This document shows positions 12,017 through 58,056 of a stretch of 58,056 nucleotides of DNA, one piece after another (position 1 is the stretch's first letter; every line of letters begins with the position of its first letter). The DNA lies in NCBI GenBank assembly GCA_945915275.1, contig CAMEEZ010000003.1:1-58056 (forward strand), in the 5' to 3' direction. Source of the stretch: an uncultured Mycoplasma sp. (GTDB lineage Bacteria > Bacillota_I > Bacilli_A > RF39 > UBA660). A program made the position numbers and the translations under genes. The notes under the pieces were generated by a model. The model ran no database searches and was not told the DNA's origin. It saw only the letters and a program-made list of their open reading frames with translations.

Positions 12017-12097
12017 TTCAATAAGGGCTATTAATAAACAAAAAATACAATATAAAAACAGGCAATAATAAAAAAAGAAAAGGAGCAATAAATGTTC

Positions 12098-14139: not shown

Positions 14140-14286
14140 AAAAACCTCCATATTAGAGATTTATAGGCCTATTTGATCTCTCAACTTTATTTAACAATAC
14201 AAATTAAAATTTAACAAATATTTATTTTTTATCTTTCTTATAAATAAAATTTATATTTATAAGTTATAATATAATAGTGATTATTT

Positions 14287-14769: not shown

Positions 14770-14804
14770 TTATTTAATCCATTATAATTAATGGAGGGAT
14801 TAGA

Positions 14805-15267: not shown

Positions 15268-15289
15268 AAAAGGAGTTTTTCCTTTTTTT
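15268..15289 (+). terminator. intrinsic terminator of CotF-like operon
   Basis: AAAAGG-AGTTTTT-CCTTTT followed by a T-run. Confidence 0.6.
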
Positions 15290-15293
15290 ATAT

Positions 15294-15320
15294 TAAAAAA
15301 ACGACTATAAAAAGTCGTTT
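15294..15320 (-). terminator. intrinsic terminator after tRNA-Ala (bidirectional hairpin)
   Basis: AAACGACT-ATAAA-AGTCGTTT is flanked by an A-run and a T-run, so it reads as stem plus T-run on the minus strand. Confidence 0.65.
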
Positions 15321-15330
15321 ATGTTCATAT

Positions 15331-15407
15331 TGGTGGAGAATAAGGGATTCGAACCCTTGACCCCCTGCGTGCAAGGCAGGTGCTCTAGCCAACTGAGCCA
15401 ATTCCCC
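15331..15407 (-). tRNA. tRNA-Ala (anticodon UGC)
   Basis: Reverse complement GGGGAATTGGCTCAGTTGGCTAGAGCACCTGCCTTGCACGCAGGGGGTCAAGGGTTCGAATCCCTTATTCTCCACCA. It has the G3:U70 identity pair, anticodon loop CTTGCAC and an encoded CCA. Confidence 0.92.
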
Positions 15408-34400: not shown

Positions 34401-34479
34401 CAACACTCCCTTATTATTAAGATAATTTTATCAAAACTATTATTTTTCTTCAACTAAAAAAAGGAAATTATTTTCCTTT

Positions 34480-35367
34480 TTAAAATTTATTTCCACACAT
34501 GAAACAAATTGCATCATTTTGGTCTACTTGATTACCACAATTTGGACAGAACTTTTTATTTTGAACAGGTTCTGTCATAACCGGTTTAGAATCTACAGGT
34601 TCAGTAGCAATAGGTTGTGTTACTGTAGGTTCAACAACTTGTGTTTGTTGTACTGGTTCTATTACTGGAGATTCTACTACTGAAGCTGGTTGCATATTTG
34701 TAACTTGAGATGCAGGCGTTTCAACTACTGGTGTAGGTTGAACTTCATTAACTGGAATCACTGGTGTTTCAACAACAGGAGTTGGTTGAACTTCATTAAC
34801 TTGAGTTGTTGGAACTTGTTCAACTGTTTGAAGCGGAACACTTTGTACTTCAGGTTGTAAATTATTATTTTGAACAACGCTATTATTCATTCCAACACTT
34901 TGATTATAATCCATTCCCATATTTTGGATTGGGTGATTATTATTTTGGACAACATTTTGATTTACTGTATTATTCGTTGGTATATTCCCTTGGTATTGTG
35001 CATTTCCAAAAGCTAACATTGGTAAACAAACATATGGAAATAATACCATAGCTACTCCAAATCCAGTTGATTTACCAAACTTATGAGCAAATTCAATATA
35101 AGTTTTGAACATCGCATAGATATTAGCAAATGGTATAAAATATAATAATACATACCACATTGGTAATTCTGTGATTTGAATTATAACTATAAAATTATAA
35201 ATTGGAATTAAAGCTTCCCATCCTTTTCTTCCGGCTTTTTTAAATACTTTGTACATACATACTAGTAAAAATATACAAGCTAGCATTACTATAAACCATG
35301 TAATTGTTAAACCAACTAATATATCTCCTGTGGCATTAGTAGTTTGTACTTCATAAGAATAACTCAT
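34480..35367 (-). CDS. membrane protein with Pro/Thr/Val/Gln linker and C-terminal zinc ribbon
   Basis: N-terminal 3-4 TM segments, tandem NEVQPTPVVETP repeats and C-terminal CPNCGNQVDQNDAICFMCGN. Confidence 0.65.
   Translation of the reverse strand: MSYSYEVQTTNATGDILVGLTITWFIVMLACIFLLVCMYKVFKKAGRKGWEALIPIYNFIVIIQITELPMWYVLLYFIPFANIYAMFKTYIEFAHKFGKSTGFGVAMVLFPYVCLPMLAFGNAQYQGNIPTNNTVNQNVVQNNNHPIQNMGMDYNQSVGMNNSVVQNNNLQPEVQSVPLQTVEQVPTTQVNEVQPTPVVETPVIPVNEVQPTPVVETPASQVTNMQPASVVESPVIEPVQQTQVVEPTVTQPIATEPVDSKPVMTEPVQNKKFCPNCGNQVDQNDAICFMCGNKF
34705..34800. repeat. 48-nt imperfect tandem duplication (2 copies) inside CDS
   Basis: GTTTCAACTACTGGTGTAGGTTGAACTTCATTAAC (34718-34752) and GTTTCAACAACAGGAGTTGGTTGAACTTCATTAAC (34766-34800), giving a 48-nt period. 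They encode VNEVQPTPVVETP twice. Confidence 0.8.
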
Positions 35368-35384
35368 TTCTTTTACCTCTTCTC

Positions 35385-36236
35385 TTAATTAAACATATTC
35401 ATTATTTCTCCAAGGTCAATTGATGACATTGAATTCATAATTATAAAATATCCAATAATTGCTAATATTGTAATACTAGCAACATGAAAATAAATATTAA
35501 TATCTCCATTTTCAAATTTAGTGTTTTCATTAATTAAACCTATAAACATAATAAATGAATATATTAATCCAATAACAAATACTATAATATATAGTTCTGC
35601 CCAAATTTTACCTAATATAGGAGCTAAAACGCTACATAATACTATATTCGGTAAAAAAGATGTTGCAGTTACTGCTAATAGTTTTGAAAAATTTGTTGTT
35701 TTCTTAGCAACTAAACTAGCTAAATAATACACTCCAGCAATAGCTAATATTATTACAAAATTTATTATTAAATTTTTAAATATTAATGAAACAAAATCCA
35801 AATTTTCTAATAACTCAAATTTTATAGTAGTTTGCATTTTTGTTAATTCATAATTATACTCTTTAACTACAATTATGTTTAATATTGTTGTTATTAAATT
35901 AATAAACATCATTGCAAATGCTACAATACCACTTAAGATAAATGAATTTTTTAAATCAGCTAATTTATCTTCCTCATCTTTAAAAGTTTTTACTGGCTTT
36001 ATTATTGAATTAATAATATATTTCACAAAATTTAATAATGGTTTGCTAGATTGTGATACATTATTTTGAGGTGTTGCCACTATTTGAGGATTATTAAAAT
36101 CTTGTGGTTGATTTGTAATATTATTATTCACTATTGGTGGATTATTAGGAGTAACAGCTGCTCCTAATATATTTCCACATTTAACACAAAATTTTGCGCT
36201 TTCATTATTTAAATTTCCACATTTAGAACAATTCAT
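35385..36236 (-). CDS. zinc-ribbon plus Yip1-like polytopic membrane protein
   Basis: N-terminal CSKCGNLNNESAKFCVKCGN followed by 5 TM helices. Start placed at MNCSKCG, with AGGAGA overlapping the TAG stop of the upstream SPFH gene. The track ORF extends to 36263. Confidence 0.65.
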   Translation of the reverse strand: MNCSKCGNLNNESAKFCVKCGNILGAAVTPNNPPIVNNNITNQPQDFNNPQIVATPQNNVSQSSKPLLNFVKYIINSIIKPVKTFKDEEDKLADLKNSFILSGIVAFAMMFINLITTILNIIVVKEYNYELTKMQTTIKFELLENLDFVSLIFKNLIINFVIILAIAGVYYLASLVAKKTTNFSKLLAVTATSFLPNIVLCSVLAPILGKIWAELYIIVFVIGLIYSFIMFIGLINENTKFENGDINIYFHVASITILAIIGYFIIMNSMSSIDLGEIMNMFN

Positions 36237-36244
36237 CATATCTC

Positions 36245-37501
36245 CTATAATTGTGTTCCACATTCACTACAAAATTTTCCAGTAGCTGCAGCATTACCAC
36301 AATTTGGACATCCAGTTTTAGTTACTGTTGGCTCACTTACTGGAGCAGTTGGTTCACTAGCTTCTGCAACTGCAGTAGTTGGCTCATTAACTGGTGCAGA
36401 TGGCGCACTTTGAATTCCACCAAATACTGTTCCTGGTTGAGGATCAACTGGACCTGTAGGTTGAACTGGTGTTGCTTGATTTGGGAATCCTTGAACAGCT
36501 CCCATCATATTAGCACCTTGCATTTGACCCATGCCCATACCCATGAATCCCATCATAGCACCTGCTTCATTACCTGCTGCTGTTTTCATTGCTTCAGCGC
36601 TAGCTGCAGCCATTGTTCCTGCCATATTTTGACTATAAACTTGACCCATACGAGTTGTTCTAGCAATATCAGCATCCATTTCTTGAATTATTTTTCTTGA
36701 AGCTTCTGATGCATTTACTCTTAAAGCAACATCAGAAACAATAATTCCATATTTTTGATGCCATTCATCATCTAAGATTTGATTCATTTGATCAGTTACA
36801 TCTGTTTTATAACTTTGAATTCTATTAAATGAAACATTATGCATAGTCATAATATTTGAAATTGCTTCACTTACTTTTTGAGCAAATCTGCTTTTTAAAA
36901 TATTTTGTCCACCATCTGTAACAAAAATATCATCATAAGTTAATGTATCTTTGGGATTTGCCCCAATTATGTTATTTACTAAAATAATTGGATCATTAAC
37001 TTGAATACCATATTCACCATTGTAAGTTATTTCTACACTTCCATATACTGGATCAAAAATCGTTTCAGGTTGAGCTGATCCAAATGTATTTCCTGGTATT
37101 ACCTTAGTATTAACAAAATATACTCTTTGATCTTTAGCTTCTTGACCACCATATGTAAAACGTGCTCCAATTGTTTTAAATGTGTTAATAAGACCTTGAC
37201 CTAATCCTCCAGTAAAAATGCTTGGCTCACTACTTGTATCCCAAGTATAAGTTCCAGGTTCTGCAGAAAATTCTACAATCTTCCCATTATCAATAATCAT
37301 CATTGCCATACCTTGTGGAACAGCAATTGTACTTCCATTTGATATTACTCCTTCAGAAGCATTTTTATTGCCATCACCATGCTTTACAATACCTCTTTGA
37401 ATAATAACATTATTCTCTACTTGTGGACATTCCACAAATTCTTTAAATTGATCTCCAAATCCAGATGATACTGAACTTAATGCTGCTTTAATTAATCCCA
37501 T
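36245..37501 (-). CDS. SPFH/band-7 protein with C-terminal zinc ribbon (COG4260, B. subtilis YdjI type)
   Basis: The N-terminus MGLIKAALSSVSSGFGDQFKEFVECP and the SPFH core are typical of YdjI-like 'virion core protein-like' proteins. It has a Met/Gly/Ala/Pro-rich tail and then CPNCGNAAATGKFCSECGT. Confidence 0.7.
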   Translation of the reverse strand: MGLIKAALSSVSSGFGDQFKEFVECPQVENNVIIQRGIVKHGDGNKNASEGVISNGSTIAVPQGMAMMIIDNGKIVEFSAEPGTYTWDTSSEPSIFTGGLGQGLINTFKTIGARFTYGGQEAKDQRVYFVNTKVIPGNTFGSAQPETIFDPVYGSVEITYNGEYGIQVNDPIILVNNIIGANPKDTLTYDDIFVTDGGQNILKSRFAQKVSEAISNIMTMHNVSFNRIQSYKTDVTDQMNQILDDEWHQKYGIIVSDVALRVNASEASRKIIQEMDADIARTTRMGQVYSQNMAGTMAAASAEAMKTAAGNEAGAMMGFMGMGMGQMQGANMMGAVQGFPNQATPVQPTGPVDPQPGTVFGGIQSAPSAPVNEPTTAVAEASEPTAPVSEPTVTKTGCPNCGNAAATGKFCSECGTQL

Positions 37502-37519
37502 AAATATCCTTCTTTCCTT

Positions 37520-38236
37520 CTAATAATTAATTATATTGTTTAAAGACCAAACTCTTTTTACAATTTCTTTTATTCCTGTACCACAATAAGTACATATTTT
37601 TACTCCGGTATGTTTTACTGGAGCTCCACAATTTGGACAATTAAGTCCTAAAGTTTTTATTTCAATATCAACTTTACTTTCATCTATAACATAGACATAT
37701 TCTATTCTAAAGCGATCTTGAATTTTTTTACCAATTTCACTACCCTTTTTACAGAAATACTCCAAGCTTGTTTGAAATTGTATTGTTGCAATACTTTCAC
37801 TTTTCTCATATTTACTAATTGAAGTTTTGTGAAATTTAACTGAATCGAAATGAACTTCTTCTTTTAAATCTTCTATTTTACTTTTTATCCACGAATTAAT
37901 TTTACAATTAAATTTTTTTGTTGGAATTTGTTTAGTTTCAATACTATTTAAACATTCTAAAATAGCGCTTTCTGCCATACCTTTTAATTCGTAGATATTT
38001 AAATCTGGATAATCTTTTTTTATTTTTGATAAATATAAATTTTCCATACTTGAAATTGATTTGGGTGTTTCACTAGCTAATATTTTGCTTTTTTCAATTG
38101 CTTCTTTTAAATCAGATGTTCCAAAATATTTGTTAATAAACTGTCTTAATTTAATCTTTATGAAAAAATAAAAAGCTAAAATTATTCCGATTATCAAAAA
38201 TATTAATACTAAATTAATTATTAATTTTGTAGTCAT
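37520..38236 (-). CDS. TM + Tim44/NTF2-like domain + C-terminal zinc ribbon protein
   Basis: TM LIINLVLIFLIIGIILAFYFFI, a ~150-aa alpha+beta domain and CPNCGAPVKHTGVKICTYCGT. The Tim44-like assignment is only by pattern. Confidence 0.55.
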   Translation of the reverse strand: MTTKLIINLVLIFLIIGIILAFYFFIKIKLRQFINKYFGTSDLKEAIEKSKILASETPKSISSMENLYLSKIKKDYPDLNIYELKGMAESAILECLNSIETKQIPTKKFNCKINSWIKSKIEDLKEEVHFDSVKFHKTSISKYEKSESIATIQFQTSLEYFCKKGSEIGKKIQDRFRIEYVYVIDESKVDIEIKTLGLNCPNCGAPVKHTGVKICTYCGTGIKEIVKRVWSLNNIINY

Positions 38237-43882: not shown

Positions 43883-44015
43883 ATATAACCTCTCTCTTTC
43901 TCTACCTTTATTATGCTTTAATTATAACATAAAAATACAAAAATCAAAGTATTTTTTATAAAATATACTCAAAAACGTAAAGTTATGGTATACTATCATA
44001 TAGTAGGTGTTTCAT

Positions 44016-45626
44016 ATGAAGAAAATATTAATATCAATCAAAAAAAATTATTTAGCATTTTCCTATAAAAGGAACACTAATGCTATGCAAAAAAAATTAC
44101 TAAACACTAATATTATTTCTGATAACGAATTAGTATTTAGTGAAGATTATATAGAAAAAAACTTTAAAATTGTTGCTGCATTTTTAAAAGAAATATGTGA
44201 ACAATATAATATACATATAATTTCTTTTCAAAAAAATGAAATGTTTAATTTATTATTTGATTTATTTAAAAAAAATCCTTATATAAAAGTACTATATCTA
44301 TTCGAAGAAACTAGTTTACCTTACTATATATATGAAGGTATTATAAAAAACAATTATATAAAACAACTAAATTGTTATAATGTACCAACATTTATGATCG
44401 AACTTTTAGATAAACATGATATTGAAGTCACTTCTAGAAATGAAATACTATTTACAAGTCATTTTATGGAAGAAAATAATTTGACACAATTTAGTAAAAT
44501 TTTTTATAAAATTTCTGTTAAAATTAAACTTCCTGTATCAGAAAAAGATTTAGAAGATTTTGAAACATTTTGTAAAATAAATAAATATTTACGAACAATC
44601 CATTTAGAAAACACAAATATTGAAGATATAGATAAAATTCTTAAAATACTAAGAAAATGTAAAAATGGAGATATTAAATTATTGATTCATGACAATATTG
44701 TAGATGAAAAAATAATTTCAAATCTAAAGAAAATAAACAAAGCATCTAAAAAATATAAAATTTCTTTTAAATTAGTATATTCTGAAGACTATTTAAAGAA
44801 TAATGTTATTAATCAGTCTGTAGTTAGTATATTAAAAATATGTGGCACTATTATTGGATGTTTAATCTTTTCAGTAATAGGATATGTTTTGTATTCCAAT
44901 TATGATAGTATGACGAAAGATGTCCAGCTAAAAAAAGAAATAAATAAAGTCCTTGAAGAAGGAAAAACAGATGAAGAAAATCCTTTAGAAGAAAAAAATG
45001 AAGAAGTTGAAGAAGACCCTATTGCTGAGTCAGAGGAAAAAAAAGAACCAACATTAATCATATCTAATCAATATTTATCTTCTTTACTTACTATTAATGA
45101 TGATACTGTTGGATGGTTGAAAGTTAATAATACAAATATCGATTATCCTGTTGTCCAAGCTGAAGATAACGACTATTATTTAACCCGTAATTTTTATAAA
45201 AAGAATGATAAATCTGGATGGGTTTTTATGGATTATCGTAATGATTCAAGGGAATTAAATAAAAATACAATTTTTTATGCTCATAATAGATTTAGTAACG
45301 GAGTTATGTTTGGAACTTTACAAAATACAATGAAAAGTGATTGGTATACAAATCCTAATAATCAATATATTGAATTTGACACATTATATAAAAAGATGAA
45401 ATGGAAAATCTTCTCTATTTATAAAATTGAAGTTACCACAGATTATTTAAAAACAAGTTTTATAGATGATGAATCTTGGTTAGAATTTGCTAATATGTTA
45501 AAAAATAGAAGTATTTATAATTTTGGTGTTGAAATAAAACCGGAAGATAAAATTATAACATTATCTACCTGTATGGGTTCAAACAATCAATATAGATTAG
45601 TAGTACATGCAGTATTAGAACAGTAA
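44016..45626 (+). CDS. srtB: class B sortase with ~330-aa extra N-terminal region: ~270-aa cytoplasmic domain, TM helix, acidic linker
   Basis: The C-terminal ~200 aa read INDDTVGWLKVNNTNIDYPVVQAEDNDYYL...IFYAHN...IITLSTC...YRLVVHAVL (His, TLSTC Cys and Arg triad). TM VVSILKICGTIIGCLIFSVIGYVLY is at ~aa 270-295. The acidic linker is EENPLEEKNEEVEEDPIAESEEKKE. Confidence 0.8.
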   Translation: MKKILISIKKNYLAFSYKRNTNAMQKKLLNTNIISDNELVFSEDYIEKNFKIVAAFLKEICEQYNIHIISFQKNEMFNLLFDLFKKNPYIKVLYLFEETSLPYYIYEGIIKNNYIKQLNCYNVPTFMIELLDKHDIEVTSRNEILFTSHFMEENNLTQFSKIFYKISVKIKLPVSEKDLEDFETFCKINKYLRTIHLENTNIEDIDKILKILRKCKNGDIKLLIHDNIVDEKIISNLKKINKASKKYKISFKLVYSEDYLKNNVINQSVVSILKICGTIIGCLIFSVIGYVLYSNYDSMTKDVQLKKEINKVLEEGKTDEENPLEEKNEEVEEDPIAESEEKKEPTLIISNQYLSSLLTINDDTVGWLKVNNTNIDYPVVQAEDNDYYLTRNFYKKNDKSGWVFMDYRNDSRELNKNTIFYAHNRFSNGVMFGTLQNTMKSDWYTNPNNQYIEFDTLYKKMKWKIFSIYKIEVTTDYLKTSFIDDESWLEFANMLKNRSIYNFGVEIKPEDKIITLSTCMGSNNQYRLVVHAVLEQ

Positions 45627-47429: not shown

Positions 47430-47540
47430 TTAAAGTGACTCTTTATATTTTTTTATTACTTCAAAACAAGTGAGAATATGTTTATTCTCTACAAAATCAC
47501 TTTTAAATTTAACATATTTAGAATTATAATTTTTCTTCAT
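47430..47540 (-). CDS. small Lys-rich peptide (36 aa), hypothetical
   Basis: Hand translation: MKKNYNSKYVKFKSDFVENKHILTCFEVIKKYKESL, with strong RBS AAAGGAGTGAGAAT-ATG. It lies 40 nt upstream of the ABC exporter. The hairpin CACTTTA-TCT-TAAAGTG overlaps its stop. Confidence 0.4.
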   Translation of the reverse strand: MKKNYNSKYVKFKSDFVENKHILTCFEVIKKYKESL

Positions 47541-47600: not shown

Positions 47601-47611
47601 ATTTTATTTTT

Positions 47612-47642
47612 ACAAAAAAATGACACATATTATATGTCATTT
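47612..47642 (-). terminator. intrinsic terminator of glycosyltransferase operon
   Basis: Minus strand reads AAATGACA-TATAATATG-TGTCATTT followed by TTTTGTA. It overlaps the stop of 47641-49131. Confidence 0.65.
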
Positions 47643-49131
47643 ATTCCCAAATATCATTTAATAATTCATTATATATATTATAATTATTTAAAGCTTCTTT
47701 ATTTTTTTGCTTTTGACTACCACTTCTTGGCAAATGGTTAATATGATAAACACAAGAAGATAAAACAGGAATAACATAGCATCCTTCTGCTATTAATTTA
47801 GATGCAAAATATGCATCTTCCATCCCCCATCCTTTAAATTTTGAGCTAAATGGAGTTGCTGATTTTATTAAAGACTTATTTAAAGCCATATTATGTCCCG
47901 TAACCACCGTTGAAATATTATAAATTCCAATCTGTGATCCAAAGCTTAAATCTTTAAAATAATTTGTATCATCTAAAATAGAAAATTCTTCATTAATATA
48001 AGATTTATCACATCCAATATGATATTCTTTAATTTTGGTATTTACTCTACTATCATCAAAATCAGTACATGTATCGACTCCAGATAATAAATTTGCGATT
48101 TTTAAAATATCAGAATCTTTATCAATATTTTTTCTCATACAAATAAATATAGCATTTGGAATCATTTGGATTCTAACACTCATATCATATATATAATTCT
48201 TACTCAAAATAATATCTGAATCCATAAAAATAACATTTTCATATTTTGAAACAGCATAACCGACATTTCTGGCATTAGATAATCCCATATTTTTTTCAAA
48301 AGATATAATCTGTAATTCAAAATCTAATTTATCTCTAATTTCATTGATTTCCTCAATCACATTATTAGTTGAACCATCATCTATAATAATAACTTGTATT
48401 TTTTGCTTTTCCTCTTTTGTTAATTTTTGACCTTGTATTGATAATAATGAATATATTACATTTTGATTATAAACCGGTATTATAATGCTGATATTCATAA
48501 TATTATATTTTTTTCTTAAACAAGGTTTTGAAGTTAATAAACTATTGTTTGTAATATACTTATAGTAATTTTCTATATATGAATAATCATTAGATATATT
48601 AGATAGTCTTAATTTTAAAGAAGTGCTACTTGAACGAATGTCTAAACCTGTTTTAATACCATATGTTTTTATTTTTAAATTTAAATTTCCTATTTCATCA
48701 AATAAATATTCCGGTTTTGGTGAAATAATAGGTTTATGATCATTAATATTATCATATTTAATTAAATTAAACTTGTTTTGAATTTCTTTACAAAATTGTT
48801 CATCCTTAAAAGATATTATAGTTCCATGGTAAGTATCAAATAATATAGAACAATTATTAAAATCTAAGATTGATATATCATTAATATAATATCTTTTTGT
48901 ATTATCTAATATTTTAAAAAAGTACTTAATATTTTTATTTTTAATATATATTGTCTTTTGCCTATTATCTTTTCTATAACTAATTTTATTATTTACAATC
49001 TCAACTCTAAATGTGTCATCTTCTGAGAAGACATTTAATCTTCTTTTTATTTTTGGAAGAGAATCTCTATCAATTAAATAATTGATTATACTTTTAATTT
49101 TTCTTTTATTATTTAATATTAAATATTTCAT
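47641..49131 (-). CDS. family 2 glycosyltransferase with ~210-aa unknown N-terminal domain
   Basis: The GT-A core is ISIIIPVYNQ...VIIIDDGSTNN...FMDSDIIL (DxD) in the C-terminal half. Confidence 0.8.
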   Translation of the reverse strand: MKYLILNNKRKIKSIINYLIDRDSLPKIKRRLNVFSEDDTFRVEIVNNKISYRKDNRQKTIYIKNKNIKYFFKILDNTKRYYINDISILDFNNCSILFDTYHGTIISFKDEQFCKEIQNKFNLIKYDNINDHKPIISPKPEYLFDEIGNLNLKIKTYGIKTGLDIRSSSTSLKLRLSNISNDYSYIENYYKYITNNSLLTSKPCLRKKYNIMNISIIIPVYNQNVIYSLLSIQGQKLTKEEKQKIQVIIIDDGSTNNVIEEINEIRDKLDFELQIISFEKNMGLSNARNVGYAVSKYENVIFMDSDIILSKNYIYDMSVRIQMIPNAIFICMRKNIDKDSDILKIANLLSGVDTCTDFDDSRVNTKIKEYHIGCDKSYINEEFSILDDTNYFKDLSFGSQIGIYNISTVVTGHNMALNKSLIKSATPFSSKFKGWGMEDAYFASKLIAEGCYVIPVLSSCVYHINHLPRSGSQKQKNKEALNNYNIYNELLNDIWE

Positions 49132-49145
49132 ATATTATTCCTCAT

Positions 49146-50732
49146 CTAAAATTTAAAATCAAAATCTATCTCATCAACGGGTATAGAAATATTTTGATCA
49201 TAAAAAGAAATTTTTTCTGACTGTAAAATTATATCACTATACACTTTGTATTCTCTAGAATTATTCCAGTGTCTACCATCTTTTGCAAAAGCTATATATT
49301 TTTCATTATCGCCAGGTAAAAATTTATAGTGTAACAGGTATGAACAAAATGTAGCTTTAGCATTTATATCCCATGGATAATAAAAATGATCATTAACAAA
49401 AAGTTCTTTGCCTGTATAAGTTATGAAAGGTATTTTTTGTAAACTAGGATTTATACCAAAAATCCTAGAACGAGGCCCGCCATAAAACCTTTGATAATAA
49501 GGTGCTCTCAAGTTTATTTTATATGTACCTTTATCCACAAAATTGAAATCTTCTATATTTCCTTCAAATAATCTTTTTGAACTATATACATCTAACATCA
49601 AACTTTTAATATAATTTATTTTCTTTGTATTTATAAAATCTTCAAGTTTCTTACTTTTGTATCCTTCATAAATAAATAATTCATCAGAATCCACTGTTAA
49701 ATATTTATTCCCAATTCCATAATATTCAAATATTTGTTGTTTCCAACCACACATTTTATAACAATTATATTGCTCATCTATTTTCCAAAAAGAAATATTA
49801 ACTATTTCTTGATATTTTTTTAATATCTCTGTTGAATTATCTGTTGAATTATTATCAACTAACACAAAATTTTTAATACCGATATTTATGTAATGGTTTA
49901 TCCATTTATTAGCAAAATTTTCAAAATTATTATAAAAACATATTAAAATTATTCCATTATCAAATTCAGTCGACTTTATTTGTTTAAGGCTTTTTGTTTT
50001 TAATCCGCTAATAAAATTTGAAAAATACTCATCTGTAAACTCTAAATTATTGAATTCTTTTTTAAACATCTTTATTAATCTTCTTTTTAAACTATCGCTA
50101 CTATTTAAACTTTCGATTTCTTGAATTACTTTTTTTGCTTTTTTATTCTTAATTGTTTTTAATAACTTTATATGATTAAAAAGAGGCGCAAAATCAACAT
50201 TGATAAACTCTTCAAGTTTACCGGTTTTTATATGAGAAGTTTTAAGATTTAAAATCCTTTTCATGTATGAAATAATCGAACCATGAGAAACTATTAATAT
50301 TGTATTTTCTTTAAAATTATTTTTGTACACATCATTTAAAAATTCACATAATCTTGACTCTATCTCAAACTTATTTTCACCATATTCTCCAAATCTAACA
50401 AAAAAATCCCCATTAATTTGGTTAATTCTAGTATTATCTAAATCATCATTGTTCTTTTTACCAGAATATTTTCCATTACTAATTTCATGTATCCTATTTT
50501 CAATAACAACTTCTGTTTTAGGATATTTTTTAAAAACAAAATTAGCAGTTTGTATTGTTCTAGGAAAAGGAGAAACATAAATTTTATCAATTTTTGAAGG
50601 TAAATATTCTATGCTTTCTAATATGGATTCTTTTCCTTTTTCTGTTAAAATAGACCAATAAATTTCTTTGTCTGAAATTAACTCTTTTACATTATCTGTT
50701 GCTTCACCATGTCTCAAAAAAATCAAATTCAT
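49146..50732 (-). CDS. fusion: histidine phosphatase (PGAM-like) + GT-A glycosyltransferase-like domain
   Basis: The N-terminus has LIFLRHGEATDN (RHG catalytic motif) ... VSHGSII. The C-terminal half has IGIKNFVLVDNNSTDNSTEILKKY ... TVDSDELF (GT2/GT92-like). Confidence 0.75.
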   Translation of the reverse strand: MNLIFLRHGEATDNVKELISDKEIYWSILTEKGKESILESIEYLPSKIDKIYVSPFPRTIQTANFVFKKYPKTEVVIENRIHEISNGKYSGKKNNDDLDNTRINQINGDFFVRFGEYGENKFEIESRLCEFLNDVYKNNFKENTILIVSHGSIISYMKRILNLKTSHIKTGKLEEFINVDFAPLFNHIKLLKTIKNKKAKKVIQEIESLNSSDSLKRRLIKMFKKEFNNLEFTDEYFSNFISGLKTKSLKQIKSTEFDNGIILICFYNNFENFANKWINHYINIGIKNFVLVDNNSTDNSTEILKKYQEIVNISFWKIDEQYNCYKMCGWKQQIFEYYGIGNKYLTVDSDELFIYEGYKSKKLEDFINTKKINYIKSLMLDVYSSKRLFEGNIEDFNFVDKGTYKINLRAPYYQRFYGGPRSRIFGINPSLQKIPFITYTGKELFVNDHFYYPWDINAKATFCSYLLHYKFLPGDNEKYIAFAKDGRHWNNSREYKVYSDIILQSEKISFYDQNISIPVDEIDFDFKF

Positions 50733-51826
50733 TTTATTACCTCCACCAGTTTGCTAGTTTTTTCTATCCAATTATAGTGTTCTAAAACATACTTTCTATT
50801 TTTTTGAGCTATTATCTTTCTATTGGATTCTATCGCTTTAATAATTCCTTCAATAGTTGAATCAAGCGTTGGTTCCACAACAAATCCTCTTCCATCTTCT
50901 AAAAGTTCTTTATTTATTTTAGAATTAGTTGCTACAATAGTTAACCCACAACTCATCGCCTCAAGAATTGTTCCTTGAAGGCCCTCTCCATATTCTGATG
51001 GCGATATAAATATATCCGCTTCTTGATAATATTTTTCTGTATTGGACACAACACCGACAAAAGTTGCATATTTGGAAATCTTTTCTAATCTATTTCTATC
51101 TGGTCCATCTCCAACAATAACCATTTTTAATTTATATTTTTTCTTCAATCTTTCAAACGCCAAAATAATTTTATCAACATTTTTTCTAGAAATAAGACGT
51201 CCTACATATAAAAGTGTAATCTCTTTTTTTTCTTCAGATTGAGATGATTTTAATAAAAATCTATTACAATCAACCCCAGTTGATACAACTTTCATTTCTT
51301 CTTTATAATATTTTTTCCAAGACTCTTTAACTTCCATAGAAATCGCAATAACTTTATCATATGCTGATAAAAAACTTCCTTGAAAATCATTTTGTTGCTT
51401 TGGAATTCCACATAAGTATAATACATTTTTATTGATTAATTTTCTAGGAATAAATACAGCATCTAAATTATAGTATGAAAAAACAAAATCATAAATTGTA
51501 TTTTTTTCACTCAAATATTCATACAATCTTTGATTATAAAATATTGATTCTATATTCCAGCGACACCTATCTTCTCCTGGTTCTATTTCATAAATATATC
51601 TTGCTTTTTCATCTTGATTAATTTCTATTATACTAATTTTATTTGAATATTCCTCATAAAATTTTTTATATGGTTCTGAATATTCTAGCCCAACACTTCT
51701 AGGAGATAATGTAATAAAATGAACTTCATGACCAAGAGCATAAAAGTTAGTAGCGTGATCGAACGAAATTCGTTCTGCACCCCCAACAAAATAAGATGAT
51801 CTAGGTTGATTAATAATTATTTTCAT
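50729..51826 (-). CDS. GT4 (GT-B, group 1) glycosyltransferase
   Basis: EGLQGTILEAMSCGLTIVATN is the E-x7-E region. Start placed at MKIIINQ (AAAGGAG upstream). It overlaps the next gene's start by 4 nt and the upstream stop by 17 nt. Confidence 0.85.
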   Translation of the reverse strand: MKIIINQPRSSYFVGGAERISFDHATNFYALGHEVHFITLSPRSVGLEYSEPYKKFYEEYSNKISIIEINQDEKARYIYEIEPGEDRCRWNIESIFYNQRLYEYLSEKNTIYDFVFSYYNLDAVFIPRKLINKNVLYLCGIPKQQNDFQGSFLSAYDKVIAISMEVKESWKKYYKEEMKVVSTGVDCNRFLLKSSQSEEKKEITLLYVGRLISRKNVDKIILAFERLKKKYKLKMVIVGDGPDRNRLEKISKYATFVGVVSNTEKYYQEADIFISPSEYGEGLQGTILEAMSCGLTIVATNSKINKELLEDGRGFVVEPTLDSTIEGIIKAIESNRKIIAQKNRKYVLEHYNWIEKTSKLVEVIK

Positions 51827-52529
51827 TTTTACTCCTTTTATCAATATATTTCTTTGTTAAAATTCTTGCTATTTCTAAATCATCAATATGTAAAGAATAA
51901 TCTTTGCAATAATCCATCCATATTGTTTTATATTGTTCTATCTGATCAAATGTTATCATTCCATTTACCATTTCAATTATTTTTTGAATTTCTAAAATCG
52001 CACCGCGATGGGTAATATTAATCGACTGATACGAATTACTTAAATCATTTATAATATTTAATACACCACCAGCAATGCGTGCAGACCACTCAAAATGATT
52101 CTCTCCAGGAGTTATGATAATATTCCGATCTTTATTTTGACCAAAATTATGACTTAAATCACCTAGCTTTCTACATTCTTCAAAATCATCCCAACAGCTT
52201 TGCAAGAAATCTATTCTTTCTCTATGTTCTAATCCTTCAAAATTAAAATCCCCTTGAAATAACTCAGTTAACCCATAATCACCAATACATTCACATTTAA
52301 TATTATGTTTCAATAAATTATCCCCAATAATTTGAGCGGTTTCTAAAGCTCTTTTTTTTGTGGAGTGCCTTATAATAACATCGTCACTATCTATTTTATA
52401 TAAAATGTTTTGCGCTGCCTTTTGAGCCATTTCTATTCCGTTTAAAGTCAAACTTGTATCATTTTTACCATCTATATAACTATGATCATCATAACTATGT
52501 CTTAATAATATAAAATCATTTTTTCCCAT
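51810..52529 (-). CDS. histidine phosphatase family protein (PGAM-like)
   Basis: FILLRHSYDD (RH motif), TLNGIEMA, RHSTKKRALETA and ITHRGAI (second His). Confidence 0.7.
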   Translation of the reverse strand: MGKNDFILLRHSYDDHSYIDGKNDTSLTLNGIEMAQKAAQNILYKIDSDDVIIRHSTKKRALETAQIIGDNLLKHNIKCECIGDYGLTELFQGDFNFEGLEHRERIDFLQSCWDDFEECRKLGDLSHNFGQNKDRNIIITPGENHFEWSARIAGGVLNIINDLSNSYQSINITHRGAILEIQKIIEMVNGMITFDQIEQYKTIWMDYCKDYSLHIDDLEIARILTKKYIDKRSKNENNY

Positions 52530-52550: not shown

Positions 52551-54737
52551 TTATTTTGTTTTTTTTAATACCATATTTTTTTTGATTTCTGTTTGAAATG
52601 GTTTGGTGATTGTTTTATTGTATAAAACAACTTGTTCATGTAACGCTCTAGTTGAAGCAACATATAATAAATGCATGTCAACAGCGTTATTTTCATCATA
52701 AACATCACTTGAAGCATCATTAATTATTGTACAATCAAATTCTAAACCTTTAGCTGACGCAACAGTTAAGACAAATACTCCTCCATCAAATCTATTATCT
52801 TTATTTGAAATATACGTTGAATTTATTCCTTTTCCGATTAATTCTTCATTTACTCTTTGTGCCTCCAATTCATCCTTACAAATTACAGCGATTGTTTTAT
52901 AACCTCTATCAATCCAATCGCAAATTTTATTTTCTTTTATATTTTCATCATCTTGATTATCTAAATATTGTACATCAGAACCATGTCGTATTACTGGTAT
53001 AGATTCATTTACTCCTATAGATTTTAATATGTTATTTGAAGCTTCAGTTATCTCTATTGTTGTACGATAACTTTTACTTAATTCTAACATACGACATTTA
53101 TCTTCAAAAATATTTTTATTAAGCTCATCCCAAGAATTTATACTTCTATATGGATAAAGCGCTTGAGCTATATCTCCATAAATATTAAATATAGCATTTT
53201 CAAATATTTTTTTCATTGTATAATATGTGAACAAACTATAATCTTGGGCTTCATCTATAACTATATGATTATAATTTGTTTTTTTATTAGAAATAATATA
53301 ATTTAAATATAACAATGCCGAAATATCTTCAAATGCAATTTGTTTCTTTCTTATTAATTTTAATGTATCTTTTTGTAACATTCGTATTTCTTCTGGTGTT
53401 AAATTTGTTTCCATTTGATCCAATTCAGATATAAACAAAACATATAATGCTAAGCAAGATTTATTAATTTCTTTAAAATACTTATCTAATAATTTTTCTC
53501 CCTGTTTTTTTACTAAAATATCCAATTCAACACTTTTTTTTACTGCTTCTTCCCTTACTGGATCACCCTTTGGTAATGAGGTATAAATTTGTCTATATTC
53601 TCTATTTAGATCACTATATATTTCATTTATATCCTCTTTAAATTTGCTTTTAAAATACTTACGAGTTTTATCAAAATCCAAATGATTACCATGCTCTCCA
53701 AATAATCTTTCTCTTATAATATCAGCAGAATATACCACTTTACCATCTATGCAGAAATCATTTGTCACTATTTTATCCCCATGACAACATTGTAACATAA
53801 ATTTGTCTAAAAGATCACGGAATTCTAAGCTACTTTTAAATTTACTAATATTTATTTGCATTTGTCGTTTCTTTTTGGTTTCGGGCAATATTTCTGGACA
53901 CAACGTTAAATCTGTTTCTAAATATTCATTCATAAAATTTAATAATGTTTGCTGTTTTACAGTTGATGTTTCTAATTCTGGTAAAACTGATGAAATATAA
54001 TTTAGAAAATAATTATTGGGACCAATAACTAAAAAATCATTAGATTTGTATTTATTTCCTAAATTATATATTAAGTAAGCAATTCTATGTAGTGCAACAG
54101 ATGTTTTTCCACTACCAGCAACTCCTTGAATAATAATATCATTATCTTCTGATCTTATAATTGAATTTTGTTCCTTTTGAATAGTTGAAATAATTGTTTT
54201 CATTTTATTGTCAGAATTAGCATTTAAATAAGGAAATAATAATTCGTCATTGGTTACTAAGTTAGTATCTACCGCATTTATTAATTCGCCGTTTTCAATT
54301 ATTATTTGTCTTTTTAAGAGTAAATTACCATTCTGAATACCTTCAGGTGACTCATATGAAACATTTCCAAGTTCACTATCATAATATAATCCACATATCG
54401 GACTTCTCCAATCATAAACTACAGGATTATTATTATGACTTATTGAATTTTTGCCAATATAAATTGTTAATATTCCATCCGCATTTAATCTCTGATAATC
54501 TATTCTTCCAAAATAAGGACAACTCTTAGATTTTTGAAGGTTATATACTCTTTTTCCAACATCAAAAAGCTGCGAATTCAAATTCAAATGAGTACCTCTC
54601 AATCTATCCTCAAAGGAAAGCTTAGTAGATGCTTTTTTTAGTTCTTCTTCACTTTCCTTATTTTTCTCTATTTCTTCATCAATAACTCTTTTAGTATAAT
54701 CTAAGTGCTTTTTTTCTTCTTCAAATATGTTATTCAT
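52551..54737 (-). CDS. helD: HelD-type UvrD-like helicase (RNA polymerase recycling ATPase)
   Basis: N-terminal coiled coil, then CPYFGRIDYQ...IYIGKNSI...VYDWRSPICGLYY, Walker A GVAGSGKTSVALHR, IVIDEAQDY, and C-terminal GLEFD...LLYVASTRA. Confidence 0.85.
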   Translation of the reverse strand: MNNIFEEEKKHLDYTKRVIDEEIEKNKESEEELKKASTKLSFEDRLRGTHLNLNSQLFDVGKRVYNLQKSKSCPYFGRIDYQRLNADGILTIYIGKNSISHNNNPVVYDWRSPICGLYYDSELGNVSYESPEGIQNGNLLLKRQIIIENGELINAVDTNLVTNDELLFPYLNANSDNKMKTIISTIQKEQNSIIRSEDNDIIIQGVAGSGKTSVALHRIAYLIYNLGNKYKSNDFLVIGPNNYFLNYISSVLPELETSTVKQQTLLNFMNEYLETDLTLCPEILPETKKKRQMQINISKFKSSLEFRDLLDKFMLQCCHGDKIVTNDFCIDGKVVYSADIIRERLFGEHGNHLDFDKTRKYFKSKFKEDINEIYSDLNREYRQIYTSLPKGDPVREEAVKKSVELDILVKKQGEKLLDKYFKEINKSCLALYVLFISELDQMETNLTPEEIRMLQKDTLKLIRKKQIAFEDISALLYLNYIISNKKTNYNHIVIDEAQDYSLFTYYTMKKIFENAIFNIYGDIAQALYPYRSINSWDELNKNIFEDKCRMLELSKSYRTTIEITEASNNILKSIGVNESIPVIRHGSDVQYLDNQDDENIKENKICDWIDRGYKTIAVICKDELEAQRVNEELIGKGINSTYISNKDNRFDGGVFVLTVASAKGLEFDCTIINDASSDVYDENNAVDMHLLYVASTRALHEQVVLYNKTITKPFQTEIKKNMVLKKTK

Positions 54738-54857: not shown

Positions 54858-55940
54858 TTATTTCATTTTTAATATATATTCATAATTCTTTAGAAGTCTC
54901 TCATCATTAGGATTTATTTCTAGTGCTTTTATTATATTTTCTAAGGCTTTTTCTTTATCTTTTTTATTGTAATATGCAAGACTTAAAAGATCATATGGGG
55001 TTTCGTTAAAAGTAAACACTTCATTAATATAAGTTTTTCCATTGATAGGAATTTCTAGTGCTTTTAAAACTAACTTTTCTAACTCATCCCAATTTTCTAA
55101 AGTGTACATTAAAATTGCTTTTTCTATTAAAGGGTCTCTTAAATGAGGAGCTTCTTCAATTGCTTTATCTAACCACATAATTGCTTCATCGTATCTTTTT
55201 AAAGCAGTATAACTTCTTGCAATAAAACGCATTGATGCACTTCTTTCATCTTTCCAAGTTGCTTTAGGTAATTTCAAGTGTTTAATTAAAGTATCAATAC
55301 ATTCATTCCATCTTTCATAATACATATATTCTCTTCCTAAATAATGCATATTCCTGTCATCATCAGGATCTTCTTTGACAGATAATTCTAGTAATGGAAG
55401 ATAACTGCTTCTAGATTTATTTCTATCCGGATAATGATTTAAAGTAATATCTGGTATAGTTAATATCTTTTCTTTTTCACCAATAAACGTTAAAACTTCA
55501 TGAACAGGATGAGTCCATTTATAATCTTTTAAGGTATGAGTTTTTTCATAAAAGAAACTTACAATAGGTCTATTTTGTTCATCTAAACTCCAGTTATAAG
55601 TGTATCTTGCTTTCGTAGCATCAATGCACCAATTCTTTTCAAGAATATCTCTCCACCCATGAACAAAAACTTCATCTAAATCTGTACAAACACAAATATC
55701 TGCATCTTCTGGTATAAGTTTTAATGATTCATTTCGAGCCACATCAAATCGCCAAGGACTAATTATTTTAGTTTCGACATTAACCCCTTTTTCTTTTAAT
55801 CTTTCTACTGTATTATCTGTAGAACCTGTGTCTAAAACAAAGATGCCATCTGCTTCATTCATTGAATCAACCCAACGATCCACAAATTTTTCTTCATTTT
55901 TACTTATAGCGTAAACATAAATTTTTAATTTTTTATTCAT
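54858..55940 (-). CDS. GT-A glycosyltransferase fused to C-terminal TPR repeats
   Basis: IYVYAISKNEEKFVDRWVDSM...FVLDTGSTDNTVERL...CTDLDEVF (DxD), then TPR units (ARSYTALKRYDEAIMWLDKAIE, LAYYNKKDKEKALENIIKALEINP). Confidence 0.75.
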   Translation of the reverse strand: MNKKLKIYVYAISKNEEKFVDRWVDSMNEADGIFVLDTGSTDNTVERLKEKGVNVETKIISPWRFDVARNESLKLIPEDADICVCTDLDEVFVHGWRDILEKNWCIDATKARYTYNWSLDEQNRPIVSFFYEKTHTLKDYKWTHPVHEVLTFIGEKEKILTIPDITLNHYPDRNKSRSSYLPLLELSVKEDPDDDRNMHYLGREYMYYERWNECIDTLIKHLKLPKATWKDERSASMRFIARSYTALKRYDEAIMWLDKAIEEAPHLRDPLIEKAILMYTLENWDELEKLVLKALEIPINGKTYINEVFTFNETPYDLLSLAYYNKKDKEKALENIIKALEINPNDERLLKNYEYILKMK

Positions 55941-55988: not shown

Positions 55989-57638
55989 TTATCTTTCTAA
56001 TCTTTGATATTTTTTTGTAGACAACATTAATCCACAACTTAATAAAATTAAAAGTAAGTATTTTAAAATATTATCACCTGTTGGAGGATTTGAAACATCT
56101 TGCTTTACATCTTCGACTATATAATAATTACTAAAATGTTTTGTACTAAATTGTAAATATTTTTGATTATTATATTCCACAACTTTAACATCAAAATATT
56201 CAATATCTTTTAAATTCTCAGACATATATAAAACTTTAAGATTTTTTCCCCATTCTTCATTATAAGGAATCAATATGTCTGTAACATTGTTGAATTCACT
56301 TATTATCTTATCTAAAATTTTTGAATATAATTTCAAATTATATGAATGAATGTTTTTATATCCAAGTTTTTCTAATTGTCTCGCTTCATCTTTAGTCACT
56401 TCAAATTGTTCAACTAATAATTTAGCATCTAAAGGAACATTTCCAGATTTAGTTTTTAAAATTATTCCTGTTTTATAGTCTTTTGAAACTATCGTTGCTA
56501 TTTTATCTAATTCATTGATATCTAATTCGGCAATACCTATTTCATATTTTATATCATTTATATAAAGATAATGAGTATGCATAGCGACAATATCTTTATT
56601 AAAATAATCTTCTCGAAAATAATCCTCTGTTATTTTAGCGCGCTCTTTTTCTGGAGTACTATTAATAGTTTGATAATATTTTTGAATATCCATATTTAAA
56701 TAATCTCTTAATAAATATCCCACGTCAGCATTTGGATAGCCTATAAAACTTTCTTGTCCTTCAACATATGGTTTAACTTCTATTTTTATTTTCTCATCAT
56801 TTACATATTCTTTTAAACGATCTTCTAAAGTTTTAGCATAATCTTCTAATTTAGTCCCAACTGGAACAAAGAACATTTGAGCACTTGTATATGTATTTAA
56901 TGTAAATCCATATATAATTCCATCTTTTCTTATATAAGTTGAACCTTCTGCCATTGACACAAAAGCATCTCCTCTTCTTGTATCTTCATATCCAACAAAA
57001 AATTCATAACTAGGATTATCTTCAACAACTTTTTTTAATGATGCAAATTCATTTAAAGCATTATCCCCAGCAAAGAAAGTTGATGTATTTGATGAGTAAT
57101 TTAAATAATGATTTAACATTGAAAGGTCAGCTACATATACATCATCAACAATTGATTCAATAATTTTATAAGCTTCTTTTTTTGTATTAGCATCTCCCTC
57201 AACTTCTGTGAATTTTCCTGAAACTACTTTATCTATAATTTCCTTTCCACCATCAAGATAAATTTGAAATTCGCACTCATCATTTTCATGAATTTTAGTA
57301 ACAAGATCAGCAGAACCTTCTACATATTCTTCGTAAACATCACCTTTTTTATGACACGACATATCTATTGCATCATTAGCTTCAAAATCTAATATTTTTT
57401 CTAATTCACTACGAATTATATTTCTTAAAAACCATCCTTCAATATTCCAAACTTCTTCAGTTCTGTGTTCTTTTATAAGTTTGTAATAATCTTCCATATT
57501 TACATATTTAACATCAAACTTATAATCAGCTAACGCTTCTTCCATTTGTTGTTTTCTTTCAGTTATAGTTTTTGCATCTACATTCATAGATGAAAAACTT
57601 AAAAGAAATAAAGTTACTATGATTAATATTTTTTTCAT
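55989..57638 (-). CDS. secreted surface protein with NPPTG sorting signal
   Basis: Signal peptide MKKILIIVTLFLLSFSSMNVDA. The C-terminus is SNPPTGD-NILKYLLLILLSCGLMLS-TKKYQRLER. The NPPTG codons are at 56076-56090. Confidence 0.8.
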   Translation of the reverse strand: MKKILIIVTLFLLSFSSMNVDAKTITERKQQMEEALADYKFDVKYVNMEDYYKLIKEHRTEEVWNIEGWFLRNIIRSELEKILDFEANDAIDMSCHKKGDVYEEYVEGSADLVTKIHENDECEFQIYLDGGKEIIDKVVSGKFTEVEGDANTKKEAYKIIESIVDDVYVADLSMLNHYLNYSSNTSTFFAGDNALNEFASLKKVVEDNPSYEFFVGYEDTRRGDAFVSMAEGSTYIRKDGIIYGFTLNTYTSAQMFFVPVGTKLEDYAKTLEDRLKEYVNDEKIKIEVKPYVEGQESFIGYPNADVGYLLRDYLNMDIQKYYQTINSTPEKERAKITEDYFREDYFNKDIVAMHTHYLYINDIKYEIGIAELDINELDKIATIVSKDYKTGIILKTKSGNVPLDAKLLVEQFEVTKDEARQLEKLGYKNIHSYNLKLYSKILDKIISEFNNVTDILIPYNEEWGKNLKVLYMSENLKDIEYFDVKVVEYNNQKYLQFSTKHFSNYYIVEDVKQDVSNPPTGDNILKYLLLILLSCGLMLSTKKYQRLER

Positions 57639-57715: not shown

Positions 57716-58056
57716 TTAAGCTACTTCACAATCTGCACCAGTAGCACCTTGCGGGCCTTGTTCACCTTGTACCACTTGTTCTCCTTGAACTCCTTGTACA
57801 CCCTGGATACCTTGAATTCCTTGAATACCTTAAACTCCTTGAATACCAGTTGCTCCGGTCGGTCCAGTTGGACCTGTAACTCCAGTTGGACCTGTTGGAC
57901 CTTGTGGAATTGTTAAGTTAAGTATAAAATTTGGCGAACTACCAGTTATCGAAGCGGATGCCTCTGTACCCGGATCTCCTGTTGTTACAATACCTATTGT
58001 TAAAGTTGGTGTGGCTCCGGTTGCTCCGGTTGGACCAGTTGCTCCAGTTGCTCCAG
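57716..58056 (-). pseudogene. collagen-like Gly-X-Y repeat protein (5' end beyond window) interrupted by in-frame TAA
   Basis: Hand translation of the minus strand: ...[111 protein letters not shown]. The internal TAA is at 57830-57832 and the second stop is at 57716-57718. If the first stop is real, the CDS is 57830-58056. Confidence 0.6.

Follow-up and report, generated by a model that had tools for sequence, protein, structure and literature searches.

The 58,056-nt window analysed here (contig CAMEEZ010000003.1, from an uncultured Mycoplasma sp.) has a GC content of ~25% throughout. On its minus strand, between 47641 and 52529, lie four tightly packed genes, here termed A to D, which encode three putative glycosyltransferases (GTs) and two putative histidine phosphatases, one of the latter fused to a GT (Table 1). 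A and B overlap by 17 nt and B and C by 4 nt, and a gap of 14 nt separates C from D. The rest of the window is made up mostly of housekeeping genes, among them those for ThrRS, LigA, ClpB, SufB, GpsA, a MiaB-like protein, SerRS and LysRS. A first-pass annotation of this DNA had proposed the four genes with these coordinates and spacings, a terminator bounding the operon, and the domain assignments, including an unknown 210-aa N-terminal domain of D. The open reading frame (ORF) coordinates, RNA folding and Pfam searches respectively bear out each of these.

Table 1. Features of the cassette, its immediate surroundings and related sets of loci. Loci outside the window are given by locus number, with positions on their own contigs where available.
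Feature	Coordinates or loci	Strand	Basis or remark
Gene A, stand-alone histidine phosphatase (branch 1)	51810..52529	-	239 aa; Pfam His_Phos_1
Gene B, GT4 (GT-B fold) glycosyltransferase	50729..51826	-	365 aa; Pfam Glycos_transf_1
Gene C, whole fusion ORF	49146..50732	-	528 aa
Gene C N-terminal domain (residues 1-180), histidine phosphatase	50193..50732	-	Pfam
Gene C C-terminal domain (residues 250-528), GT-A of Glyco_tranf_2_4 (PF13704)	49146..49985	-	Pfam
Gene D, whole ORF	47641..49131	-	496 aa
Gene D N-terminal domain (residues 1-205), beta-rich, no Pfam match	48517..49131	-	Predicted model
Gene D catalytic domain (residues 206-496), GT2-type GT-A	47641..48516	-	Pfam, motifs
Intrinsic-terminator-like hairpin and U7, overlapping the stop codon of D	47607..47650	-	RNA folding
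HelD, RNA polymerase recycling helicase (context)	52551..54737	-	NCBIfam HelD_BACSU, 401 bits, just below the cut-off of 419
C homologues with lost GT motifs	L001, L002, L030, L021, L028, L029, L032, L036, L038
D-like modules	L079 9363-14580; L082 6144-13161; L083 8001-16485; L084 5897-11714

The RNA of 47650..47610, which closes the cassette, folds with a free energy of -12.9 kcal/mol (z = -4.4, none of 200 shuffled sequences being as stable) and is followed by U7; a consensus terminator scan missed this hairpin, which was recovered by folding. At the other end a terminator-free gap of only 21 nt lies between HelD and A. The transcription unit may thus start at HelD, with HelD and A co-transcribed. 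The ORFs are far beyond chance expectation, being long in DNA of 22-25% GC and each having more than 100 full-length homologues. Membrane segments are absent from A to D, the maximum Kyte-Doolittle hydropathy over 19 residues (KD19) being at most 1.45, as against 1.9-2.7 in membrane or secreted neighbours. The region is present in DNA metagenomes of sheep, pig, bovine and other gut samples; the sequencing runs matched were DNA metagenomes only, with no RNA run containing the region among them.

Gene A matches His_Phos_1 (PF00300) with 35.1 bits (Pfam cut-off 21.7), and its catalytic residues R10, H11, R60, E89 and H174, the last within a THRG motif, are kept in all 15 aligned family members. 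It carries a family-specific insert, FLQSCWDDFE...FGQNK, and its 112 homologue clusters are confined to cassette-bearing lineages. In related loci A is always directly upstream of B and overlapping it, and is found solely with B. The mechanical ORF of B begins at a TTG at 51844; its homologues use the ATG (MKIIINQPR) adopted in Table 1. B matches Glycos_transf_1 (Pfam, E = 4e-30), and both glutamates of its EX7E motif (E281-x7-E289) are invariant in nine homologues. Compared as a profile with the PDB, B is matched in its donor-binding half alone, by generic GT4 enzymes such as SPS (structure 6KIH being among the best matches), PimA/B, BshA, PglA and the GT4 domains of capsule polymerases. Since only this generic half is matched, the acceptor cannot be inferred from B. 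A preference for BshA seen in a single-sequence search was gone with the profile and was discarded.

The two halves of C are recognised by Pfam, with residues 3-168 matching His_Phos_1 at 72.2 bits (cut-off 21.7) and residues 273-366 matching Glyco_tranf_2_4 (PF13704) at 49.9 bits (cut-off 27.5). Of 57 aligned homologues, 54 retain the phosphatase residues R7, H8, R58, E83 and H150. These residues are lost in two proteins of one lineage (L003/L004), in which the degenerate phosphatase is joined to an intact GT and A lies next door, and L051 is gapped at the first four positions. Thus the arginines and the second histidine, singled out beforehand as the residues on which the proposal turned, are present in A and in C, as are the glutamate and the nucleophile histidine. 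In the GT half the conserved motifs are DSDE (D348, D350, E351), H449 and H468-Y-K. A helical segment rich in lysine and arginine (residues 182-249) precedes the GT domain and belongs to the N-terminal extension of the PF13704 family rather than being a linker, as the separately encoded GT of a split locus, L087, aligns from residue ~189.

AlphaFold models C, with a histidine-phosphatase fold in its N-terminal part, at a predicted local distance difference test score (pLDDT) of 86 and a predicted template modelling score (pTM) of 0.81. Foldseek was run on full-length models, so that the best-known domain dominates (His_Phos for C, GT-A for D), and the best matches of C were PspA, PhoE, CobC and GpgP (E 1e-8 to 1e-6, target-normalised TM-score, TMt, ~0.6); its C-terminal half gave GT-A matches to viral GT2/GT92-like models in BFVD. 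A profile of the GT domain of C found no match among PDB sequences even at E = 10. Homologues of this domain fall into 3246 representative clusters, mostly stand-alone PF13704 proteins of ~380 aa with some multi-GT proteins, and a search of plasmids with C returned distant stand-alone GT2 genes in rhizobia and nothing else. Literature searches on the fusion, on PF13704/Glyco_tranf_2_4 and on Saccharibacteria glycosyltransferases found no paper describing this family, and the His_Phos/PF13704 fusion is uncharacterised. It had been called unusual, which is apt in that sense but not as a statement about frequency, as the full-length homologues of C, 72-44% identical to it, make up more than 150 clusters at 90% identity.

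The fold of the phosphatase domain bears on the analogy with GpgS/GpgP drawn in the first-pass annotation, and on the reading that the cassette encodes a pathway of the glucosylglycerate or mannosylglycerate type (GpgS/GpgP or MpgS/MpgP). The domain superposes on mycobacterial GpgP Rv2419c (Foldseek E 3e-7, TMt 0.59), GpgP, itself a histidine phosphatase, follows a GT-A synthase in its pathway (PMC3240985), and 3-phosphoglycerate is present in every cassette host. However, there is no GT81 GpgS in the cassette, D scoring 15.5 bits with NCBIfam PRK13915, for which the cut-off is 262, and B and C having no match. The likeness to GpgP is no better than that to PspA, PhoE or CobC and, at ~17% identity, lies at the superfamily level only; furthermore, such a pathway needs one GT and the cassette has three. 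The analogy therefore survives in its logic but not in its enzymes, and a pathway of this type is highly improbable.

In D, residues 215-342 match Glycos_transf_2 (PF00535) with 67 bits, together with Glyco_transf_7C. The motifs DDGS, DSD and GWGMED...YHINH are present, with D304, D306, G434-W-G-x-E-D439, H463 and H466 invariant. The best profile match of the catalytic domain in the PDB is the chondroitin polymerase K4CP (E = 3e-23), and the model of D (pLDDT 85) retrieves K4CP, TarS/TarP and ppGalNAc-T with Foldseek. The N-terminal domain is modelled with pLDDT of ~76-95 over residues 1-210 (means of 10-residue blocks), with predicted strands at 2-6, 27-63 and 81-108 and helices at 9-22, 68-74 and 111-121. 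The first 210 residues searched as an isolated domain gave no Pfam match, and full-length D gave no match to this domain in NCBIfam, PADLOC or PHROGs, nor any match in the phage collection searched. The domain is retained with the GT2 domain down to 35% identity and is missing from the Saccharibacteria counterpart of D.

A scan with C of one genome per species gave 74 loci; the counts below refer to 59 loci that hold C. The carriers are uncultured gut Bacilli with genomes of ~1.5 Mb, including the closed 1.52-Mb genome OZ006970.1, Candidatus (Ca.) Ventrenecus, Ca. Coprosoma and Clostridium sp. CAG:710, and in other phyla Ca. Saccharibacteria (49-38% identity) and the alphaproteobacterium Ca. 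Enterousia (34%). The A-B-C-D block occurs in about 12 loci of uncultured gut Bacilli (L008, L009, L010, L014-L017, L020, L026, L034, L039), and a permuted order with a short GT2 first, GT2-A-B-C, is found in Saccharibacteria (L037, L049, L050), in Ca. Enterousia (L058) and in L003. The short GT2 aligns with D over the whole catalytic domain, at 24% identity (hhalign E 2.6e-5). The same four predicted enzyme types thus recur, permuted, in another phylum. A and B of L003, a metagenome contig, are 56-60% identical to those of the window and those of Saccharibacteria L037 42-45%; identity that high between phyla indicates horizontal transfer. Nanosynbacter-like loci with the same flanks (a two-component system, an FtsX-type ABC system, CTP synthase and ArgRS) differ only by the presence of GT2-A-B beside C in L049/L050 as against L048/L052/L053. 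The genes are translationally coupled and the set moves between phyla as a module. L007 has C-D only, and L011-L013 are decaying copies.

HelD precedes the cassette in L008, L010, L014, L015, L016, L034 and L039 and follows it in L017. A priming phosphoglycosyl transferase, Wzx/Wzy, an ABC exporter or an LCP/ligase is in no case conserved beside it across the 59 loci, the flanks being housekeeping genes. The proposal that the four genes are co-conserved and do not belong to a larger conventional polysaccharide locus is borne out by the block in about 12 related genomes, which in no case is part of such a locus. The further statement that no flippase accompanies them has to be qualified for the window, where a gene for an MsbA-like ABC exporter follows D on the same strand after 217 nt, but that exporter is not conserved beside the cassette in any related locus. 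Genes of NUDIX, Ham1, HD and pyrophosphatase-like families, together with an APH-type kinase, surround the cassette or C in related genomes. In L016, on the closest closed genome (OZ006970.1), the cassette sits amid three NUDIX, Ham1/ITPase, HD-domain and pyrophosphatase-like genes (2408-5744 and 13251-15372), an island of nucleotide 'house-cleaning' hydrolases.

Several arrangements link phosphatase and GT. In the window, two of the GTs each have a phosphatase immediately upstream or fused N-terminally. In L087 (a 1.09-Mb contig, 8036-12592) C is split into adjacent, overlapping genes for a 206-aa His_Phos protein and a 374-aa PF13704 GT, downstream of A and a GT4 gene, with an upstream GT2 that seems fragmented into ORFs of 165 and 124 aa; such a pair constitutes Rosetta-stone evidence that the phosphatase and the GT are functionally linked. 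Homologues of D (54-35% identity) occupy another recurrent module, likewise without a membrane component, in the order NTP-transferase (ManC-like), dNK-like P-loop kinase, D-like GT2, phosphatase, NUDIX, GT4 and a 280-aa HprK-like P-loop protein. The phosphatase in these modules is a HAD protein (Hydrolase_3) or, in L084, a weak His_Phos match. A phosphatase of another fold in the equivalent place amounts to non-orthologous displacement, which argues that dephosphorylation is a step of the pathway. GDP-mannose genes occur in the D-like modules, that of L083 adjoins GDP-heptose synthesis genes, and that of L082 is part of a conjugative element that also carries MobL, TraG and a resolvase; together they look like an uncharacterised sister pathway. 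The fusion, the split C of L087 and the HAD replacement all uphold the earlier suggestion that the phosphatase step is integral. A role in defence or in phage-DNA modification, prompted by the NUDIX/kinase modules and HelD, was dropped for lack of evidence, and PADLOC defence models matched none of A to D.

On its motifs the cassette thus combines three soluble GTs (B, the C-terminal domain of C, and D) with a pair of histidine phosphatases, gene A and the N-terminal half of C, whose catalytic residues are intact. We tentatively favour, at rather less than even confidence, the reading that A to D form a self-contained cytoplasmic pathway in which a soluble, phosphorylated acceptor is built up into a glycoside or short oligosaccharide, the transfer of sugar and the loss of phosphate being coupled. 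Soluble enzymes, tight coupling, transfer among three phyla, the lack of any conserved priming, flipping, polymerising or export partner, and the recurrent coupling to a phosphatase (in the sister modules to kinases and NUDIX proteins too) make this the most economical account. Transfer among Bacilli, Saccharibacteria and an alphaproteobacterium would leave the cassette functional only if all of these hosts share its acceptor. This acceptor would be a phosphorylated soluble metabolite of all carriers, a glycolytic intermediate or a glycerol or sugar phosphate being the obvious candidate. C would be the core enzyme, performing glycosyl transfer and dephosphorylation on the same small molecule, and A with B, and D (or the short GT2 of Saccharibacteria), would lengthen the product to a di- or trisaccharide glycoside. 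The steps could run in either order, with glycosylation preceding dephosphorylation as in GpgS/GpgP, SPS/SPP and MshA, or with the acceptor dephosphorylated and then glycosylated.

A number of observations weigh against this reading, and the first group concerns the independence of the phosphatase. C stands alone in 36 of the 59 loci, nearly all of which have several flanking genes on both sides, so that the four genes, proposed as a unit, do recur as a block but not obligately. Nine lone C proteins (Table 1) have the DxD motif and H468 replaced and all phosphatase residues kept, and appear to carry a pseudo-glycosyltransferase domain on an active phosphatase. Stand-alone phosphatases of ~200 aa that share 55-71% identity with the N-terminal domain of C are common, one of them sharing a contig with C (L064 and L010). 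In a neighbour-joining tree, indicative only as it rests on 180 residues, they interleave with the N-terminal domains of Bacilli C proteins, which suggests repeated loss or gain of the GT part. A phosphatase kept without its GT, together with this interleaving, points to a phosphatase role independent of the GT product. Persistence of the phosphatase where the GT has decayed favours either dephosphorylation before glycosylation or a broader phosphatase role. The product envisaged earlier, made by glycosylation followed by dephosphorylation, accordingly keeps its integral phosphatase step, but its order of events is put in doubt by the lone proteins that lost DxD and kept the phosphatase.

The same observations would suit phosphatases that act on metabolites or nucleotides in general and are tied to the GTs loosely, through supply or housekeeping (for example making free acceptor, or clearing a nucleotide product or a NUDIX-derived sugar phosphate) and not through a shared intermediate, with the GT part of C optional. 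The crowding of NUDIX, Ham1, HD and pyrophosphatase-like genes around the cassette or C, and the fixed presence of NUDIX in the D-like modules, fit such a role as well. It is harder to reconcile with the fact that A is found only with B, directly upstream and overlapping, and that phosphatase and GT stay adjacent even when C is split. A phosphatase of different fold in the equivalent place of the D-like modules also speaks against it, and the pTM of the C model suggests a defined two-domain arrangement. A loose link of this kind is thus quite unlikely, and coupled transfer and dephosphorylation on a soluble acceptor is preferred.

A second group of contrary observations concerns the nature of the product. 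NCBIfam has no equivalog for any of A to D, all matches being far under cut-off. Three GTs are many for a compatible solute, and D resembles enzymes that build or decorate polymers, K4CP and TarS/TarP. The basic helical segment of C could bind a membrane or a polyanion. Those members of its GT family whose gene context can be read are located in polysaccharide loci. The single homologue of its GT domain from a cultured organism, Pseudalkalibacillus hwajinpoensis (Bacillaceae), lies in a classical exopolysaccharide (EPS) locus with LytR, CpsB/C/D, a priming transferase, Wzy and Wzx, and homologues on rhizobial plasmids adjoin sulfotransferases and polysaccharide export genes. All three putative GTs come from families that usually build glycans, which does not distinguish a soluble from a lipid-linked oligosaccharide.

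These features raise the chief alternative, assembly or decoration of an envelope glycan or glycolipid. The acceptor of the GTs, at the inner face of the membrane, would then be a lipid-linked oligosaccharide, a polymer akin to teichoic acid or a glycolipid of the diacylglycerol type, supplied by genes elsewhere, and the phosphatases would strip sugar-borne phosphate or expose an acceptor hydroxyl. The EPS and rhizobial settings of the stand-alone relatives, the basic segment of C and the matches of D all agree with it. The matches of B to PimA/B, PglA and the GT4 domains of capsule polymerases are as good as any of its others, and PF13704 is cited in papers on lipooligosaccharide outer core and cell-wall polysaccharide. 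Enzymes of the GT-phosphatase-GT type are also known from capsule synthesis (PMC12096443; PMC10299916), although these pair HAD phosphatases with transferases of the phosphoribosyl pyrophosphate (PRPP) type and not His_Phos with a DxD GT-A. Against it, conservation of the cassette across three phyla does not extend to a priming enzyme, flippase, polymerase, ligase or exporter, and A to D have no membrane segments. Gram-positive, candidate phyla radiation (CPR) and Gram-negative hosts would, moreover, all need the same lipid-linked acceptor. An envelope product is therefore unlikely, albeit to be taken seriously; were it true, it would represent a new mode of phosphate editing on envelope glycans. 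The soluble cytoplasmic pathway remains the preferred reading.

Around the cassette in the window are several genes for surface and secreted proteins. A class B sortase is encoded at 44007-45626 (+) (TIGR03064, 171 bits), with an unusual N-terminal extension of ~320 aa that contains a membrane segment. A secreted 549-aa protein at 55989-57638 (-) carries a sortase substrate signal at its end, namely NPPTG followed by a hydrophobic stretch and a basic tail. G-X-Y repeats mark a collagen-like ORF (57776-58054, -), which continues beyond the end of the window and has an in-frame stop inside the repeat, which could reflect a pseudogene, a repeat assembly error or two ORFs. Adjoining these surface and collagen-like genes, at 54858-55940 (-), a gene encodes a soluble GT2-like domain (weak Glyco_tranf_2_4 and Glycos_transf_2 matches) with C-terminal TPR repeats; L019 has a copy, 62% identical, at a distance of ~3.5 kb from a lone C gene. 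A 36-codon ORF, MKKNYNSKYVKFKSDFVENKHILTCFEVIKKYKESL (47433-47540, -), preceded by a GGAG ribosome-binding site, fills part of the space from the D terminator to the GTG at which the MsbA-like exporter starts, and could encode a small peptide or an exporter-linked leader. Further away, at 32529-38236 (-), five consecutive genes join zinc-ribbon motifs to SPFH/Band-7, Yip1, DUF5684 or uncharacterised membrane regions. The ABC exporter, sortase, surface and collagen-like genes of the window are not syntenic elsewhere, the clusters of the sortase, surface and collagen-like neighbours being singletons among 79 sources (the window and 78 loci). A link of the cassette to the downstream exporter, the sortase and the surface and collagen-like genes was rejected on this ground.

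It had also been proposed that the cassette glycosylates these neighbours. In its general form this would be cytoplasmic O-glycosylation of the sortase-anchored or collagen-like protein, or of another secreted protein, in the manner of serine-rich-repeat adhesins or BclA. The use of several soluble GTs without a lipid carrier is typical of adhesin glycosylation, the catalytic domain of D resembles polypeptide GalNAc transferases in fold, and the NPPTG protein, the sortase and the collagen-like ORF all lie within 6 kb. These neighbours are, however, absent beside the cassette elsewhere, and in Saccharibacteria the cassette adjoins two-component system and tRNA synthetase genes. Phosphatases play no part in known systems of this kind. 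In the window HelD separates the cassette from the surface-protein genes, which are adjoined by the separate GT2-TPR gene, the product of which is a better protein-glycosyltransferase candidate. Glycosylation of surface proteins by the cassette is thus very unlikely, and we return to the soluble glycoside pathway.

In its most specific form this reading would make the product an undescribed soluble glycoside or short oligosaccharide, perhaps serving as a compatible solute or in storage or signalling, and the cassette would have spread horizontally among ultra-small host-dependent bacteria of three phyla. The fusion would then stand for a new enzyme class, that of bifunctional synthase/phosphatases for glycoside phosphates, with the D-like HAD/NUDIX/kinase modules as a sister pathway. 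This is possible, although on balance doubtful. Biosynthetic pathways are very few in Saccharibacteria and the small-genome gut Bacilli, whose accessory genes are for the most part without an assigned function. In such genomes a cassette with five catalytic domains that is both conserved and horizontally shared probably matters for living in or on a host, osmoprotection, surface chemistry and carbon storage being examples. PF13704 has thousands of members, with no solved relative detectable in a search of PDB sequences with the domain of C, and knowledge of the cassette's product would provide annotation for several large families in one stroke and give the known 'synthase plus phosphatase' solutions a third phosphatase fold.

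Comparison with known systems places the cassette apart from each of them. The hallmark genes of a conventional capsule, O-antigen or teichoic-acid locus, whether of the Wzx/Wzy or the ABC type, are not conserved with it in the 59 loci. D shares with the A1 domain of K4CP, TarS/TarP and ppGalNAc-T a GT-A fold, a DxD motif and a GWGxED...H tail, but at 12-24% identity; it has a unique 205-aa N-terminal domain and is without their lectin, trimerisation or second GT domains. SPS/SPP, MshA with its phosphatase, fused TPS-TPP, GgpPS and MgsD resemble the cassette in that a phospho-acceptor is glycosylated and the phosphate then stripped, and they provide a precedent for fusion. These systems use HAD-type phosphatases and GTs of family GT20, GT55 or the SPS-type GT4. 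By contrast the cassette has no match above cut-off to those Pfam and NCBIfam families, and contains no HAD phosphatase, GT20 or GT55.

Cj1432 of C. jejuni and the CriT-CrpP-CroT enzyme of H. influenzae Bcs3 likewise unite GT and phosphatase in one polypeptide, the middle domain of Cj1432 and CrpP of Bcs3 removing the phosphate after ribose-5-phosphate transfer and so enabling the next GT (PMC12096443; PMC10299916). Their phosphatase is HAD-like and their transferase a PRPP-using, PRTase-like enzyme (PMC10299916), in contrast to the His_Phos and DxD GT-A domains of the cassette, and they are located in capsule loci with export genes, which the cassette is not. GpgS/GpgP (mycobacterial Rv1208/Rv2419c) shares its logic with the cassette, in that a DxD GT-A enzyme and a branch-1 histidine phosphatase of matching fold act on a soluble phosphorylated acceptor (PMC3240985). 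The cassette differs in having no GT81, a PF13704 GT domain and three GTs instead of one, and, whilst the mycobacterial genes are unlinked, its phosphatases are fused to or overlap a GT gene. The domain combination is new, and the theme of glycosyltransferase plus phosphatase is one already known.

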